DNA from: Promethearchaeota archaeon
Lineage (GTDB): Archaea; Asgardarchaeota; Heimdallarchaeia; Hodarchaeales; Hodarchaeaceae
Reading direction: 5' to 3'
Length of the DNA stretch: 64,000 nt
Assembly (NCBI GenBank): GCA_048938105.1
Contig: JBHLMN010000004.1
Span: 128,001-192,000, forward strand
Of the stretch, positions 51,381 to 61,336 are shown one piece after another; position 1 is the stretch's first letter, and each line of letters starts with the position of its first letter. The translations under genes and the position numbers were made by a program. The notes under the pieces were generated by a model. That model worked only from the letters and a program-made list of their open reading frames with translations, did not search any database and was not told where the DNA came from.

Positions 51381-52463
51381 CTATGGTTTCATTTTTTTCT
51401 TTCGCGCCATCATTAAGACAAATCTTGCCGAAATTAAACCTCCTATAACGAAAGCGAATTCAAAACATGGAATAGCTGCAAAATGTGAAGCTATCGAAAT
51501 TTCTCCTCTATACACTAATGTGAGATCAGCTTCAAAAATGAAAAGCTCACGATCCTGATCAGCAAGATAGACGTATTCTCCGTCATAAAATATATCATGA
51601 GGGGTGGCATCCCTGTAATGGGCAATTTCAAAAGGTTGGTTAATATCTGTTATATTCAGGAGATACACTCCCTTTTGTAGGTCGGCAACATAGAGATGAG
51701 TTGTGTTTCCAGTAACACCAAAAACTTCACATTCAGATTTTTGATATTGCCCTAAGATTGTTGGTGATTGAGGGGTTGAAATATCAATAATACGGACTCC
51801 ATTTCCATGACAACCTAAGAACATTAGATGTTCATAAATGTAGATATCAATGACACCATGAGTTCCAGAAACTGTTCTGATTCTACTTGGAGAGGAAGGA
51901 TCTGAAACATTAATAACTTTTAGACCGTTATTAGGATCAGCAAGGTATGCAAGGCCATCCTTGAGCGCAATATCTCTGAATTCACCTCCATCATCGAATG
52001 TACTAACCTTAGTAATTGCTTTAGGATTAGAAATATCGAATATTTCGAGACCACGGGGATATTCTGTTACATACGCATAAGAACCTTCAACACATACACT
52101 GTTTGCACTTCCCCCATCCGAATACTCTCCAATAATAACTGGTCTATCTGGGTTACTGATATTTACTATAAGGAATCCATTACTGTCGCTAGCAATATAT
52201 AAAAAGTCTTCAATTACTTCTACTCCAAATGCGCCGTCACTAGTAGTGATTTCTCCGATTTGTATTGGATTGCTTGGATTACTAACATCGTGGATTTCTG
52301 TACCATCATTATTTGTGATAAAAACATAATTATCTTGGACAAAGACCTCATATCCAACATTGATCCCGTTTTGTGTAATGATCATTATACCAAAAACAAT
52401 CACACATATACCAATGAAAATTGCACCAATTATTGGAACAATGATCTTTCTGTTTAATCTCAT
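51381..52463 (-). CDS. LVIVD-repeat beta-propeller surface protein
   Basis: Repeats YxAxxxxGLxIxDISxPxxP, N-terminal signal/TM, C-terminal IPCFE-TM-RKKK. Confidence 0.88.
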   Translation of the reverse strand: MRLNRKIIVPIIGAIFIGICVIVFGIMIITQNGINVGYEVFVQDNYVFITNNDGTEIHDVSNPSNPIQIGEITTSDGAFGVEVIEDFLYIASDSNGFLIVNISNPDRPVIIGEYSDGGSANSVCVEGSYAYVTEYPRGLEIFDISNPKAITKVSTFDDGGEFRDIALKDGLAYLADPNNGLKVINVSDPSSPSRIRTVSGTHGVIDIYIYEHLMFLGCHGNGVRIIDISTPQSPTILGQYQKSECEVFGVTGNTTHLYVADLQKGVYLLNITDINQPFEIAHYRDATPHDIFYDGEYVYLADQDRELFIFEADLTLVYRGEISIASHFAAIPCFEFAFVIGGLISARFVLMMARKKKMKP

Positions 52464-52532
52464 TTTTTTTCCACTTTGAGCTTTTATTTAATGAATCTAA
52501 GAATTTTGCACTTAGTTTAATCATCCAACATC

Positions 52533-53627
52533 TTACATATTCTTTGTTCGAAAAACCTTTTGCTTAAATACTAGGAATGAGGATAATCCGATAATAGCAA
52601 AAACTAGTTCAAAACTTGTGGCAGTTACAGAATCAGTTTTAGAAGTATTATTACTTTCTTCAATTTGAATAATCTCAAGGCCATCAGACCCATCAGCTAC
52701 GTAAACAAGATTGTTAACCCCAAATACATCTTGTCCTTGCCCACCATCGTTGTACTCTCCTAGTTTTATGGGATGAATGGGGTCATTTATTTCTATTATC
52801 TCCAATCCGTCTTCCCAGTCTATAGTGTAAGCAATATCGCCAATTATATGAACGGCTACAACATCTCCCCCATCATGAAATTGACCTAATTCAATAGGAT
52901 TTTGGGGATCATTAACGTCTAGAATCTCAAGTCCATCTTCTTTATCTGCAATATATGCAATATTATCAATAACAGATAATTCAACAGAGTGTCCACCGTC
53001 AAAATATTGACTTAATTTAGTAAGAATAGTGCGTTGGCTAACGTTAAGAATCTCTATACCATTTGTGTATTCAGCAGCATAGAGAATATCATCTATCATC
53101 TGAAGGGAAAATACTGATCCACCATCGTCAAATTCCCCAATTTTTATCAGATTGGAAGGATTAGTAAGATTTAAAATCTCTATACCATTATACCAATTAG
53201 CTAGATAGCCAATATTACCCTTAGGAATAAGTTGATGAGCATCTGAAGCATAATACTCTCCCAGTTTAGTGGGATGTGAGGGATCACTTATGTTAAGGAT
53301 AAATAGACCATTTGTATTGCAAGATAAATAAAGAATATCATCAACAACTTGAACTCCTCGTGCTTGCCTAATATTATATTCACCTAGTTCTACAGGATCA
53401 GATGGATCACTAATATCTAAGACCTCTAATCCATCTTCAAAATCAGCTACGTATGCAATATCGTTAATGATTTGGAAGTTTACAGTTTCTCCTCCATCAT
53501 TAAACTGTCCGATTTTCGTTATTTTTATTTGTGTAGTTGTTTGAGAAAAAACTGGAACTATTATCAAAATATTTTGTAGACAAATCGCGAATACATAGCA
53601 AACAATTATTAATTTGCCTTTTCTCAG
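52533..53627 (-). CDS. LVIVD-repeat beta-propeller surface protein
   Basis: Repeats AYVADxEDGLEILDxSDPxxP. The signal peptide is complete only with a CTG start at 53627 (GGAGTGA upstream). C-terminal ATSFE-TM-basic. Confidence 0.88.
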   Translation of the reverse strand: MRKGKLIIVCYVFAICLQNILIIVPVFSQTTTQIKITKIGQFNDGGETVNFQIINDIAYVADFEDGLEVLDISDPSDPVELGEYNIRQARGVQVVDDILYLSCNTNGLFILNISDPSHPTKLGEYYASDAHQLIPKGNIGYLANWYNGIEILNLTNPSNLIKIGEFDDGGSVFSLQMIDDILYAAEYTNGIEILNVSQRTILTKLSQYFDGGHSVELSVIDNIAYIADKEDGLEILDVNDPQNPIELGQFHDGGDVVAVHIIGDIAYTIDWEDGLEIIEINDPIHPIKLGEYNDGGQGQDVFGVNNLVYVADGSDGLEIIQIEESNNTSKTDSVTATSFELVFAIIGLSSFLVFKQKVFRTKNM

Positions 53628-53728
53628 GTTGTGTCACTCCTGGTCAGTATTTATTCATGATTTCTTCTTTTTCAAAATAAATAATGTGAAATCTCTCTAT
53701 TGACTAGCTGTTCATCACTAATTATATT

Positions 53729-54877
53729 TCATTTAAACCTAGGTCTTAATTTTGAACGGATTTTAATATCCAAAATGAAACCAGTTAATACAAAGATAAC
53801 AAAGTACATCTCAAATCCTGGACTTGAATTTGAAGTTTTTATATCATCTTCAAACGATATCTCGATAATTTCAAGGACATCGTCCCTATCAGTCATAAAG
53901 GCAATGTTATCACTTACAAAAACGTCGGTAGCATGTCCACTGCCATCATGGTACTGGCCAATTTTAGCAGGATTAGAAGGATCGCTAATATCAAGAACTT
54001 CCAATCCTTCATGAAAATTTGTAACATATGCTAAATCCCCTTCAACAAATGTTTCCATTGTAAAACCCCCATCATGGAACTCAGAAACTTGTGTTATATT
54101 AGTAGGGTCATGCACATCGAGAATTCTTAACTCCCCAGATTCATCATGATGATCAGCAGCAAAGAGATAATTATTGTAGACAAAAGGATAAATAAAATCT
54201 ATTTCATAACGTATATAGTTCCCTAATTCGAATATATTACATGGATTACTAATATTCAGAACTCTTATTCCAGTATATTGAGTACAGTGATCAGTTATAT
54301 ACATTAAATTGTCCTTGATAAAGAAATCATGAAAATATCTTCCAATAGGTTTATACTGGCACAATTCATTAGGATGTGCGGGATCACTTACATTAAGAAC
54401 CTCTAATCCATCTGCATTATCCGCAAGAAATGCTATATCCCCTAAAACTTGAACGTGAGTTGCATATCCTCCATCATTATGACTTCCGATTTTTTTAGGA
54501 TTGGTAGGATCACTAACATTAATAATCTGTAATCCTTCCTCTTTAGCTGTAAGATAAGCGGTTTCTGTTGTAACAAATAAGGAATTTGGGAGTCCATCTA
54601 TGAAATAAGAACTCAGCTTTTTAGGATTTGAAAGATCAGAGATGTCAATTATTACAAGACCACCAGGATTGTCATCGGTTGTATCTACAACATAAGCGAG
54701 ATCACCTATCACTTGAACATCGTAGGCTTCACCATTCGTGTCAATTTGCCCCACTTCTTTCAGTATAATTTTTTGGTGAAATGCTACTGGAAAAATGATT
54801 TTTCCACAAGTAATTGTAAATAGACAGATAATCCCAATTGTAGGAATAACTTGTTTTCTGTTAAGTCTTATCCTCAC
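53729..54877 (-). CDS. LVIVD-repeat beta-propeller surface protein
   Basis: GLVIIDISDLSNP and related repeats, signal peptide, C-terminal SPGFE-TM-basic. Confidence 0.88.
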   Translation of the reverse strand: MRIRLNRKQVIPTIGIICLFTITCGKIIFPVAFHQKIILKEVGQIDTNGEAYDVQVIGDLAYVVDTTDDNPGGLVIIDISDLSNPKKLSSYFIDGLPNSLFVTTETAYLTAKEEGLQIINVSDPTNPKKIGSHNDGGYATHVQVLGDIAFLADNADGLEVLNVSDPAHPNELCQYKPIGRYFHDFFIKDNLMYITDHCTQYTGIRVLNISNPCNIFELGNYIRYEIDFIYPFVYNNYLFAADHHDESGELRILDVHDPTNITQVSEFHDGGFTMETFVEGDLAYVTNFHEGLEVLDISDPSNPAKIGQYHDGSGHATDVFVSDNIAFMTDRDDVLEIIEISFEDDIKTSNSSPGFEMYFVIFVLTGFILDIKIRSKLRPRFK

Positions 54878-59105: not shown

Positions 59106-60491
59106 CTAATAGATGAATGGTACACCTATATCTTCGAGTTCTTTGCGTACATTTTTATAAAGAGTTTTGTATTCTGTTGTAGGTTTGACCTTTTGAACAT
59201 CATAACATTCTCGGAAATTTTTCCCAAGGGGAGCATCTGGGATATTCTCTTCATAGGTCTTTAAGAGAGTGAGTGTAAGCTCATTTGCATCACCTCGAGA
59301 GATTTTTTTCATTGCTGCTCCAGTACCAACTTCAGCAGCCATACGGGCTTCCATTGGGGTTGCATAATTTTTGACTTTGTTCTTAGCAACGGCCATTTCC
59401 CATAAATTTGCACCAGAGATGACAGAGACAAGCCCATGAGTTGCTGCTTCTCGCAAGACCATTTCAGTACACGGACCTGCTGCAGCAAATCCATTAGACA
59501 TTGACACGAAATTACTATTGCGAGCCAAAGCTTGATAGGTTGTTGAAATAACCCAGAGAAGTTGACGCATAGTATTACTAGTATGCTTCAAATGGAATGG
59601 GAAGTAATTCATGAAGTGAGCTTGGTTCACTAATAATCCCATCAAATGATATGCCACTCCCACGACTGCAGTTCCTTCAGGTCCACCAGCATAACCACCC
59701 ATAATAGGCCCAGCCAATGCTCCGACAAAACAACCATAAGTATGAAAGTGTACCATTTTATTTAGGAGAGAATTATCCACTTTGAGTTCTGTTATACTAG
59801 CTACAAAACGTCCATCTGTCAATCTTTCCCCCCACTCGGTATTACTAGCGGCAATTTGAGCAGCGTCCGATTCTGCTGTTCCAACACTTTTAAGAAAGAT
59901 ACCAGGACGACCGACTCGTCTGGCAGCTTCTCGGAACATCATCGCATGAGCGACCGATCCTTTCACTTCTGAAGGAAACCCAGAGCGTATGGGCATGCCC
60001 TCGATTTCAGGCAGGATTGGAGCACAGACTCCATCAGCTAGAGGCTCCTGTAAGTAAGCCATACTCATTGGGAGGAAGAGATCTTCATCACAAGTTATAT
60101 CGGGTGAAAATAGACAGAAAGGCCTTTGTGAATCTTCAATTTGTCGACTGGAGATTTCTTTAGAATCCCGTCCGAAACCTAGCGTGAATCTCCCAGGGAA
60201 GTTTCCAAAGGCTTCCTTTATTTCATCTTCAGTGAACAGAATCCTACGATGAGTATCAGTCACCAAAGTTCCAACTTCGAGATATAAATCCATAGCAGCT
60301 TTCCAAAGGCTATCAGCTAGAGTATTGTCTTGTGGAACGGGTATTGCAGGATCGAAACAGATATCATATTCCTTAACAACCCTTCGAAGTTCAGGAACAA
60401 GAAGTTTGAGATCAAAATCCCCTTCTAAGCAAATAGGACCATTTTGTGCTCTGTCCAACACTTCATTGATACGCCATGGCGGTGTTACCAT
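59106..60491 (-). CDS. mtmB: Monomethylamine:corrinoid methyltransferase (MtmB) family protein, non-pyrrolysine variant
   Basis: Family motifs DTHR..FTEDEI, LGFGRD, GRPG, ELKVD, PIMGGYAGG, AGPCTEM, PMEARM..EV, APLGKNFRECYDV. The 461-aa ORF is uninterrupted, with no in-frame TAG. Confidence 0.92.
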   Translation of the reverse strand: MVTPPWRINEVLDRAQNGPICLEGDFDLKLLVPELRRVVKEYDICFDPAIPVPQDNTLADSLWKAAMDLYLEVGTLVTDTHRRILFTEDEIKEAFGNFPGRFTLGFGRDSKEISSRQIEDSQRPFCLFSPDITCDEDLFLPMSMAYLQEPLADGVCAPILPEIEGMPIRSGFPSEVKGSVAHAMMFREAARRVGRPGIFLKSVGTAESDAAQIAASNTEWGERLTDGRFVASITELKVDNSLLNKMVHFHTYGCFVGALAGPIMGGYAGGPEGTAVVGVAYHLMGLLVNQAHFMNYFPFHLKHTSNTMRQLLWVISTTYQALARNSNFVSMSNGFAAAGPCTEMVLREAATHGLVSVISGANLWEMAVAKNKVKNYATPMEARMAAEVGTGAAMKKISRGDANELTLTLLKTYEENIPDAPLGKNFRECYDVQKVKPTTEYKTLYKNVRKELEDIGVPFIY

Positions 60492-61157
60492 TTACTTCGA
60501 CCTTTTTTCGAGTAATTTAGTAGCAAGTTTTGCTGCTCCAACTGCGGTTTCTGCCCATCCATCGGCGCCTATTTCTTCTTGCCAAGTTACAGTCGTTGGG
60601 GCTCCCCCAATGATGACCAAATAATTATCCCGTTTACCCAAAGCTTCAAGTAGTTCAAGAACTTCTTTTTGTGACATCATAGTGGTGGTCATTAATGCAG
60701 AGAGGGCGATTATATCTGCCTTCACTTCATCAGCTTTCTCAATGAACTGCATTGAAGGGACATCTTTTCCTAAGTCAAAGACTTCAAATCCCGAGACTTC
60801 TAGCATAATTTTTACAATATTTTTCCCAATTTCGTGAATATCCCCATGAACGGTACCGAGTACAACTTTACCTTTCGTTTCCAACCGTTCTGTAGTGGAT
60901 TTCTTGATGTGTTCTGTCAAGACTGAAGTGGCTGCCTGCATTGCTTCTGCAGCTCCCATTAGTTCGGGGAGAAAGATATCCATTCGATCAAATTTATCCC
61001 CTATTTCTTCCATTGTAGGGCTTAAGACATCATCAATTACTGTAAGTGGATCAACTTGATGCACTGTTATGAGCTCATTAGCGATTTCTTTGGCTTTGTC
61101 AGGCTCGTATTCCTCTAAAGATCTCTTTAACGCTACAAAAAGGCTTTCCATGGTCAT
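60492..61157 (-). CDS. Cobalamin-binding corrinoid protein (MtmC/MttC family)
   Basis: Cap domain (IGDKFD..IFLPEL..AAEAM), B12 motif GDIHEIGKNIV, DLGKDVP, SALMTTT, GGAP, IGADG. Its stop abuts the mtmB ATG. Confidence 0.95.
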   Translation of the reverse strand: MTMESLFVALKRSLEEYEPDKAKEIANELITVHQVDPLTVIDDVLSPTMEEIGDKFDRMDIFLPELMGAAEAMQAATSVLTEHIKKSTTERLETKGKVVLGTVHGDIHEIGKNIVKIMLEVSGFEVFDLGKDVPSMQFIEKADEVKADIIALSALMTTTMMSQKEVLELLEALGKRDNYLVIIGGAPTTVTWQEEIGADGWAETAVGAAKLATKLLEKRSK

Positions 61158-61336
61158 TTTTTGGTAACATCCTTCTCCTTACGGCTTACTATAAGACCTT
61201 AAAAATTACTGTTTTTAAACCCAAAAAGGGATGTTGGACAAAAAAGAAATAATATTGAAATAAATTTGAAATTTCAAAAGCTTTTTCAAATCTCAGAATT
61301 CATGAGAGATTTAATCAGAAAAATCATTCCACGCCT

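Follow-up and report, generated by a model that had tools for sequence, protein, structure and literature searches.

The 64,000-nucleotide stretch of DNA considered here (the window: positions 128,001 to 192,000 of contig JBHLMN010000004.1, assembly GCA_048938105.1, from a Promethearchaeota archaeon) carries, at 59106-61157 on the minus strand, a gene for a corrinoid protein followed by a gene for a homologue of MtmB, the pyrrolysine (Pyl)-containing monomethylamine methyltransferase. The homologue has a lysine in the place of pyrrolysine, and the question raised by the locus is which methyl compound such an enzyme could handle in a host that is neither a methanogen nor an acetogen. It may be concluded that the pair is a genuine and conserved corrinoid methyltransferase module of the MtmB family. 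Judging by its residues and relatives, it would take part in three-component corrinoid methyl transfer with a substrate that is neither monomethylamine nor a substrate of MtqB, a Pyl-free homologue from a methanogen. We regard this explanation, taken as a whole, as rather probable.

The gene pair

The main features of the pair, in coordinates of the window, are:

60492-61157, minus strand: gene of the corrinoid (cobalamin-binding) protein, MtxC type, 221 amino acids (aa), the first gene of the pair
60825-60842, minus strand: codons of the DIHEIG (DxHxxG) motif, residues 106-111 of the corrinoid protein
60834-60836, minus strand: His108 codon of the corrinoid protein, the expected lower axial ligand of base-off/His-on cobalamin
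59106-60491, minus strand: gene of the Pyl-free MtmB-family methyltransferase (first methyltransferase, MT1), 461 aa, the second gene of the pair
61158-61336: AT-rich intergenic region of 179 bp between the corrinoid gene and a divergent HisJ-type histidinol-phosphatase gene, the presumed promoter region of the pair

The reading made earlier from the sequence alone (the sequence-only reading) described a corrinoid protein whose stop directly abuts a full-length MtmB homologue without an amber codon, and this description stands in every part. The TAA of the corrinoid gene is followed by the ATG of the MtmB-like gene at the very next base (gap of 0 nt), an arrangement that points to translational coupling of the two genes. 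Internal TAG, TGA and TAA are all absent from the second gene, which is itself terminated by an ordinary TAG. The first protein matches PF02607 (B12-binding_2 cap, E = 2e-17) and PF02310 (B12-binding Rossmann domain, E = 9e-27); its best NCBIfam matches are MtgC, pyl_corrinoid and MtbC, every one under its cut-off, and TIGR02370 gives 202.7 bits, slightly under the cut-off of 215.3. From what is generally known of PF02310 proteins, we take His108 to be the axial ligand of the cobalamin. The 461-aa protein matches PF05369 (MtmB) with 325.7 bits (cut-off 25, E = 6e-97) from end to end, residues 8-456 covering profile positions 3-449 of 450, and Methanosarcina barkeri MtmB1 (PDB entries 1L2Q, 1NTH and 1TV2) with E of about 1e-72 in HMMER.

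The pyrrolysine site and the residues around it

The codons that matter at the Pyl site and around it are:

59889-59891, minus strand: Lys201 codon AAA, Pyl202-equivalent in the alignment to 1L2Q
59715-59882, minus strand: whole stretch of the codons replacing acidic residues, from the alignment
59880-59882, minus strand: G204 codon, E205-equivalent
59805-59810, minus strand: R228/F229 codons, F229 being the E229-equivalent
59715-59717, minus strand: L259 codon, E259-equivalent
59364-59366, minus strand: Tyr376 codon TAT, the sole column besides 201 that splits K-type from Q-type orthologues

When the protein is aligned to 1L2Q with HMMER, the X column of Pyl202 is occupied by K201, and E205, E229 and E259 fall on G204, F229 and L259. 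The mapping is identical in a MAFFT alignment that includes 13 Pyl-MtmB genes translated through their TAG. The same correspondences had been proposed in the sequence-only reading with residue numbers of the M. barkeri enzyme, and both the numbers and the lysine assignment proved right. The AlphaFold2 model of the protein (predicted local distance difference test score, pLDDT, 96.4) has the MtmB TIM-barrel fold and superimposes in Foldseek on 1L2Q, 1NTH and 1TV2 with template-modelling (TM) scores of 0.94-0.95 and a root mean square deviation of 1.5 Å over 454 columns. The superposition keeps K201 at the Pyl site, at the end of barrel strand 199-201, and the residue correspondence is reliable because no indel occurs across residues 194-218.

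Residues at the corresponding positions were tallied in the MAFFT alignment for 116 members of the clade to which the window protein belongs and for the 13 Pyl-MtmBs:

Position 182: H in 115/116 clade members, E in 13/13 Pyl-MtmBs
Position 204: G in 108/116, E in 12/13
Position 228: R in 116/116, H in 13/13
Position 229: F in 103/116, E in 13/13
Position 259: L in 116/116, E in 13/13
Position 273: G in 116/116, E in 13/13
Position 297: F in 116/116, G in 13/13
Position 364: W in 112/116, S in 13/13

As these sequences have it, the loss of the acidic residues is clade-wide, and the replacement of the triad E205/E229/E259, at first noticed in the one protein, extends over the 116 members. Most of the clade-specific positions lie at, or just past, the C-terminal ends of barrel strands in the AlphaFold2 model. 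From this location, and by analogy with the study of MtqB (PMC13044021), the residues concerned may be expected to line the substrate pocket.

The Pyl site itself is less constant, with K in 56, Q in 44, V in 6 and A in 5 of the 116 sequences. Lysine is restricted to the sequences more similar to the window protein, and Q, V or A are found at 55-72% identity. Lys201 is a lineage-specific variant of a variable position as far as the alignment goes. With Q, V or A at this site in close orthologues, Lys201 probably does not take over the catalytic role of pyrrolysine and would be a binding residue at most; the weight that the sequence-only reading had laid on this lysine was misplaced. Only two columns split the K-type from the Q-type sequences at the 90% level, namely 201 (K/Q) and 376 (Y/R). 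The combination K,Y occurs 52 times, Q,R 43 times, V or A with R 10 times and K,R 3 times, and it looks in the alignment as if a positive charge had been moved from R376 to K201.

Position of the clade and its distribution

The existence of Pyl-free MtmB genes is already known, and one member has been characterised. MtqB from Methanococcoides methylutens Q3c is a non-Pyl MtmB homologue acting as a tetramethylammonium and choline:corrinoid methyltransferase (Kashyap et al., Front Microbiol 2026, PMC13044021). It is presented there as the first function demonstrated for such a homologue, and non-Pyl MtmBs in Asgard archaea are mentioned in the same paper. The statement in the sequence-only reading that no substrate was characterised for a non-Pyl MtmB is overtaken by this work. 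In an earlier study (Sun et al. 2021, PMC9723677), MtmB is listed among the methyltransferases of Sifarchaeia, and an in-frame UAG is reported there for one gene only, that of the dimethylamine methyltransferase MtbB.

The sequences needed for comparison were found in 151 Methanosarcinaceae genomes, reached via a Methanohalophilus match to the DNA pattern GMGV-TAG-GP(E/D). Two proteins of strain Q3c are candidates for MtqB, P0273 (WP_445476043.1) and P0276 (WP_445476047.1). Both have 459 aa, the length of MtqB in the proteome table of PMC13044021; they are sisters in the trees and equally distant from the window protein, and MtqB is either of them. In M. orientis, a corrinoid protein of 216 aa with MtbC as its best model comes before the orthologue of P0273, as PMC13044021 says of MtqC. 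The MtqB clade has M at the 205-equivalent (4/4), C at the 259-equivalent (4/4) and V or I at the Pyl site. In PMC13044021, a completely conserved Met and Cys are described, with aromatic residues, near the MtqB ligand, and the M and C columns seem to be this Met/Cys signature ("positions 4 and 5" of that paper).

The window protein is 31% identical to both MtqB candidates, 32-33% to Pyl-MtmBs, and 43% and 82% to the two paralogues of its own genome. In both the FastTree tree of 151 family members and the IQ-TREE tree of 59 (LG+C20), it forms with its relatives a fully supported clade (100) inside a 21-row clade (99), and the MtqB clade (99) and the Pyl-MtmB clade (99) stand together on the other side. 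By these phylogenies, the protein is outside every characterised clade, that of MtqB included, which settles in favour of the sequence-only reading a point on which it could have failed.

The family is large, counting 967 clusters at 50% identity with E up to 1e-3 and 218 with E up to 1e-30. Nearly all of the clusters among the matches listed are full-length, and for this reason they are taken to be amber-free. The non-redundant proteins with 55-88% identity to the window protein number more than 100, and a metagenome locus with 91% identity was also found; the clade is among the best conserved of the MtmB family. The source names of the relatives include Hodarchaeales/Hodarchaeota, Heimdallarchaeota, Promethearchaeota and metagenome-assembled genomes (MAGs) labelled Thor and Odin, and further Bathyarchaeia, Bacillota and Chloroflexota (Anaerolineae). 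Named organisms are Ca. Hodarchaeum mangrovi, with the orthologue WP_455142462.1, and [Eubacterium] cellulosolvens, with a homologue of 70% identity (WP_455363301.1). In an even sample of the host's phylum, a close homologue is present in 5 of 120 genomes, which belong to two genera of different classes. These sequences suggest patchy inheritance or transfer of the gene, because identity is higher for the copy of the other class (84-87%) than for that of the same genus (80%).

Some unusual gene calls were met in the family. P0195 and P0190 are calls of about 260 aa that start at or just after the Pyl-equivalent position; with 44-46% identity to the window protein's C-terminal half, they are closer to it than canonical Pyl-MtmBs are, and may be the downstream halves of amber-containing members near the clade. 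P0253 (298 aa) starts as a corrinoid-like protein with a DxHxx-like motif and runs on into MtmB-like sequence, being either a fused corrinoid-MT1 form or a mis-assembly.

Gene neighbourhoods

Gene order was examined at 84 related loci (80 metagenome contigs and 4 genomes) together with two loci of this genome, 86 in all. Of the 75 loci that retain the upstream region, 57 have a same-strand corrinoid gene directly upstream, at identities of 58-91% and with a spacing of 0-4 nt or short overlaps. In loci L144, L146 and L126, the gene is part of an island that also contains MttB homologues, a RamA-type activase and three genes of the UroD family; RamA homologues adjoin the orthologues in these three loci and in L137. 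Recurrent neighbours are APC-type permeases (10 loci), transporters of the major facilitator superfamily (MFS; 8 loci) and an enolase-superfamily enzyme (8 loci).

One Asgard genus has a K-type gene (84-87% identical) without an adjacent corrinoid gene, in a conserved operon:

Loci L078, L079, L081, L084 and L085 (e.g. L081, 44-7451): corrinoid-less operon in the order GSDH-like dehydrogenase, class-V pyridoxal phosphate (PLP) enzyme, cupin, acid-sugar-dehydratase-like enolase-superfamily enzyme, MtmB-like protein, acetolactate-synthase-like thiamine diphosphate (ThDP) enzyme, DtxR-type regulator

Judging by its composition, this operon may serve the breakdown of a methylated carboxylate, perhaps of a sugar acid bearing a methyl group. 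To our knowledge, enzymes of the enolase superfamily act only on carboxylates. The neighbour in question is nearest to acid-sugar dehydratases and 3,6-anhydrogalactonate cycloisomerase. No betaine epimerase is named among the 60 PDB matches listed for it, many of which are unnamed "putative" entries, and a reading with proline betaine as the substrate gains nothing from this enzyme for that reason. The ThDP enzyme is acetolactate-synthase-like, under all cut-offs. An AIR-synthase-like gene found upstream in 16 loci was considered as a part of the system and rejected; it is ThiL above the cut-off and is read as lineage synteny.

In the window, the pair is flanked by a convergent helix-turn-helix protein gene and the divergent HisJ-type histidinol phosphatase gene, and a gene for a D-cysteine desulfhydrase/CuyA-like PLP enzyme is located further out. 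Three tandem genes of LVIVD-repeat beta-propeller proteins (51381-54877, minus strand) lie 4-8 kb from the pair, followed by genes for an ArsR-type regulator and a CAAX-protease-like protein. Related LVIVD genes are also near MtmB homologues in a genome of the same genus and at the 91%-identical metagenome locus (L080, 4259-6476; L082), L080 having an ArsR-type regulator in addition. The proximity of the LVIVD genes is probably conserved synteny and not a shared function.

Methyl-transfer genes of the host

The genome (5.85 Mb, 99% complete) belongs to an archaeon from sediment or mangrove samples. The names of the nearest homologues, together with Roadblock and Ras-like genes in the genome, identify an Asgard host, as had been supposed. 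No McrA, CdhC (acetyl-CoA synthase) or MtrH was found in the genome, and the further supposition of a non-methanogenic host agrees with the missing McrA. There are three MtmB homologues, none with an internal stop, four MttB homologues, all amber-free, and only two corrinoid proteins of MtxC type, that of the window and one on contig 49. Models of PylS (C-terminal) and PylD stay far under their cut-offs in this 99%-complete genome, pylB and pylC not having been searched separately. The sole Pterin_bind protein of the genome is a dihydropteroate synthase, and no pterin-type second methyltransferase (MT2) was found in the genome. One match to PF14574 (contig 31, 240 bits) is AcsV/RamA-like, under the NCBIfam cut-offs and unlinked to the pair; four weak MtaA/CmuA-like proteins of the UroD family could be MT1 or MT2. 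Of the components that the sequence-only reading had proposed to look for in the genome, PylS and PylD are missing, the activator is a single unlinked RamA/AcsV-like protein, and among the acceptors there is one homocysteine S-methyltransferase and no MtrH.

Three other places in the genome are of interest in connection with the pair:

Contig 49, 202189-205208 (L005, 6190-9208), minus strand: tight operon of a corrinoid protein (218 aa), a protein with a homocysteine S-methyltransferase domain (295 aa) and an amber-free MttB (480 aa)
Contig 20, 92963-96262 (L004, 8964-12263), minus strand: gene run with the 82%-identical K-type paralogue, no adjacent corrinoid gene
Contig 20, 89204-92158 (L004, 5205-8159), plus strand: the third MtmB paralogue (43% identical) and an MFS gene

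The corrinoid protein of contig 49 is 45% identical to that of the window, and the homocysteine S-methyltransferase of the cassette (PF02574) is the single one in the genome; from its gene content, the operon looks like a methionine synthase fed by a methylated amine. The minus-strand run of contig 20 consists of a nitroreductase-family protein (weak BluB-like match, 62 bits), the MtmB-like protein, an Ada Zn-binding/AraC regulator and an O6-methylguanine methyltransferase, and a link of this paralogue to alkylating methyl donors is possible on the basis of these neighbours. In the third paralogue, the motif reads GRPLIGF-H-NLLGT and puts a His at the Pyl-equivalent position; the MFS transporter gene stands directly before this paralogue, which shares a sister clade with P0123.

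ARAGORN with introns allowed reports a "tRNA-Pyl(cta)" on contig 11 (135861-135970; L167, 263-369). This call was rejected, as it needs an intron inside the anticodon, and a default ARAGORN run returns nothing at this site. With the intron at the usual 37/38 position the anticodon is CUG, both the D and the T loop are canonical, and the match to Rfam RF00005 reaches 48.8 bits. The gene is probably a canonical intron-containing tRNA (CUG/Gln), and reports of "tRNA-Pyl only" Asgard MAGs based on ARAGORN may include such intron artefacts.

Proposed function and alternatives

The gene pair, its family, fold and residue mapping, the place of the clade in the trees, the conserved gene order and the gene content of the genome are observed; from these data we infer a direction of transfer, a substrate class, an acceptor and an activase. 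The pair would be the first half of a three-component cobalamin-dependent methyl-transfer system, in which the TIM-barrel MT1 would bind a methylated substrate and present its methyl group to Co(I) of the 221-aa His-on corrinoid protein. The pairing of the two proteins is likely because their adjacency is conserved. The substrate would not be monomethylamine, because pyrrolysine and the acidic residues invariant in Pyl-MtmBs are gone, and would not be tetramethylammonium or choline, because the protein has 31% identity to MtqB, a separate clade and no Met/Cys signature. Since R228, H182 and K201 (or Q201 with R376) are basic or polar and enolase-superfamily enzymes are among the neighbours, the donor may be proposed to be a polar methylated compound bearing an anionic group, probably a carboxylate, such as an N-methyl amino acid, a betaine-type compound or an O-methylated sugar acid; a neutral or anionic substrate had been suspected in the sequence-only reading. 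The methyl-Co(III) protein would be unloaded by an unlinked MT2, the candidates being the contig-49 homocysteine S-methyltransferase and one of the four weak MtaA/CmuA-like proteins, and Co(II) would be re-reduced by the contig-31 RamA/AcsV-like activase. The most economical methyl sink would be homocysteine, or a thiol via an MtaA-like protein, because the host has no methanogenesis, no acetogenesis and no pterin-type MT2.

Several observations weigh against this proposal. The locus has no linked second methyltransferase, activase or transporter. The gene neighbourhoods suggestive of a carboxylate belong to orthologues in other genomes, and the operon with GSDH-like, PLP, cupin, dehydratase-like and ThDP proteins has no orthologue in this one. 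The many hydrophobic replacements would also suit a small apolar methyl donor. The K201/Y376 versus Q201/R376 difference amounts to about one evolutionary event, with a single supported independent pair on the tree, and the covariation is without statistical weight for this reason. MtqB has weak monomethylamine activity without Pyl (PMC13044021), and residual monomethylamine turnover is possible in the window enzyme.

Among the other explanations, some stay close to known amine chemistry. The enzyme could be a quaternary-amine methyltransferase of the tetramethylammonium/choline type, holding the head group by aromatic cation-pi interactions. The precedent that MtqB gives for a Pyl-free MtmB homologue using quaternary amines (PMC13044021), the gain of F229, F297, W364, W63 and Y70 in the clade and the corrinoid-then-MT1 gene order, the same as that of mtqCB, speak for it. 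It is unlikely all the same: the protein lies in a different supported clade at 31% identity without the Met and Cys of MtqB, the invariant R228 and H182 with K201 or R376 would repel a purely cationic substrate, and no BCCT-type transporter is among the recurrent neighbours of the related loci. That the enzyme is a monomethylamine:corrinoid methyltransferase working without pyrrolysine, as NCBI names its homologues, is very unlikely in our opinion. Its 325 bits against PF05369, the name "monomethylamine:corrinoid methyltransferase" carried by the relatives and the low activity of MtqB without Pyl fit this reading, but Pyl202, E205, E229 and E259, invariant or nearly so in the 13 Pyl-MtmBs, are all replaced, the clade is separate from the Pyl enzymes, and the source names are automatic and given at the family level. 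It could further be imagined that a post-translational modification of Lys201, or a Schiff base between it and a cofactor, restores an electrophile resembling pyrrolysine, which is itself an N-epsilon-acylated lysine; a lysine is placed exactly at that site. This idea has hardly any credibility: Q, V or A stand at the site in orthologues that are 60-72% identical and agree in the other conserved residues, the pair has no pylB/C/D-like or other modifying gene linked to it, and the Glu residues around Pyl are gone.

Other explanations change the donor or the direction. With its acidic residues replaced by G, F and L, the pocket could now be a hydrophobic cavity that admits a small apolar donor, for instance a methyl halide, methanethiol or dimethyl sulfide. 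On contig 20, the 82%-identical paralogue stands beside Ada-like/Ogt genes, Ada and Ogt responding to methylating agents, and corrinoid-dependent chloromethane use via a UroD-family enzyme has been proposed for some Asgard archaea (PMC13222342). This enzyme, CdmB, which has Asgard homologues, belongs to the UroD family and not to the MtmB family (PMC13222342). Moreover, the invariant polar or charged strand-end residues D131, D135, R228, N362 and N371 are kept, the recurrent neighbours are permeases and enzymes acting on carboxylates, and the link to Ada/Ogt is limited to a paralogue in this one genome, so that an apolar donor is improbable. A biosynthetic direction, in which a methyl-corrinoid protein loaded elsewhere would methylate a metabolite held by the MtmB-like enzyme, is conceivable insofar as methyl transfer by corrinoids can in principle run both ways. 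A methyl-oxidising or acetyl-CoA branch is missing from the genome, as are methanogenesis genes that could use methyl groups, and the three MtmB-like and four MttB-like genes face only two MtxC-type corrinoid proteins. We find little to commend this explanation either: the characterised enzymes of the MtmB, MttB and MtbB families all act as donor-side MT1s, the neighbours elsewhere (permeases, dehydratase-like and ThDP enzymes) look catabolic, and homocysteine methylation is a sufficient sink.

The proposal of a donor with an anionic group can be extended to a more detailed joint picture, which is rather unlikely in its entirety. The clade would demethylate a carboxylate compound new to corrinoid enzymes, for example a secondary N-methyl amino acid, or a sugar or sugar acid that is O-methylated and derives from polymers of algae or plants. 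In Asgard archaea free of methanogenesis and of the Wood-Ljungdahl pathway, the methyl group would pass to homocysteine, giving a folate-independent route from environmental donors to methionine. The difference between K201/Y376 and Q201/R376 would then reflect a moved charge that holds the acid group.

Significance

Pyl-free relatives of the methylamine methyltransferases have repeatedly opened new anaerobic methyl-donor pathways, those of glycine betaine, proline betaine, carnitine and, in 2026, tetramethylammonium and choline. Within the highly diverse MtmB family, the substrate is known for only one non-Pyl member, and the clade described here is present in Bathyarchaeia, in the named bacterium [Eubacterium] cellulosolvens and in those Asgard lineages that stand nearest to eukaryotes. 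Its current annotation as monomethylamine methyltransferase is probably wrong. The identity of the substrate would correct many metabolic reconstructions of sediment archaea and could reveal a role of methyl-corrinoids in a host without methanogenesis or the acetyl-CoA pathway.

Comparison with known systems

MtmB1/MtmC of M. barkeri shares with the pair a full-length PF05369 protein of TIM-barrel fold, a His-on corrinoid partner of MtxC type, and the motifs GRPG before the Pyl site, GGY(A/G)GG and AGPCT. The two enzymes differ in 32-33% identity and a different major clade, in UAG/Pyl against K201, and in E183, E205, E229, E259 and E273 of MtmB1 against H, G, F, L and G in the window protein; the window host, moreover, has no Pyl system, Mcr or MtbA-type pathway.

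Like the pair, MtgB, MtpB and MtcB, the non-Pyl enzymes of the MttB family, combine a Pyl-free relative of a methylamine methyltransferase with a corrinoid partner, and their substrates are different, larger methylated amines with a carboxylate. MtgB acts on glycine betaine, MtpB on proline betaine and MtcB on carnitine. These enzymes belong to another family (PF06253), Foldseek matches of the window protein to MttB and MtgB having a TM-score of only about 0.5 and 12-14% identity, and the MtgB, MtpB and MtcB systems use pterin-binding second methyltransferases, unlike the window genome, where none is present.

MtqB/MtqC is also a Pyl-free PF05369 system with the corrinoid-then-MT1 order and the acidic residues lost, and its proteins are of nearly the same size (216/459 aa against 221/461 aa in the window). 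It differs in 31% identity and in grouping with the Pyl-MtmB side of the tree, which the window protein does not do. At the Pyl site and the 205- and 259-equivalents, MtqB has V/I, M and C, whereas the clade of the window protein has K/Q, G and L, and MtqB works in a methanogen with MtbA and coenzyme M. In this connection, Methanosarcinaceae genomes of about 2.3-2.5 Mb (G081, G040, G012, G050 and G074; L065-L076) have one to five amber-free MtmB homologues besides their Pyl-MtmBs. These fall into at least three distinct groups, one of which gives about 535 bits to the Pfam model and is without an adjacent corrinoid gene; function is known only for the MtqB group.

Nearest at hand is the contig-49 cassette, which contains the only other MtxC-type corrinoid protein of the genome. 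It carries its own acceptor-side enzyme, whereas the window pair carries none, and its composition indicates that methyl-corrinoid chemistry in this genome can end in methionine.

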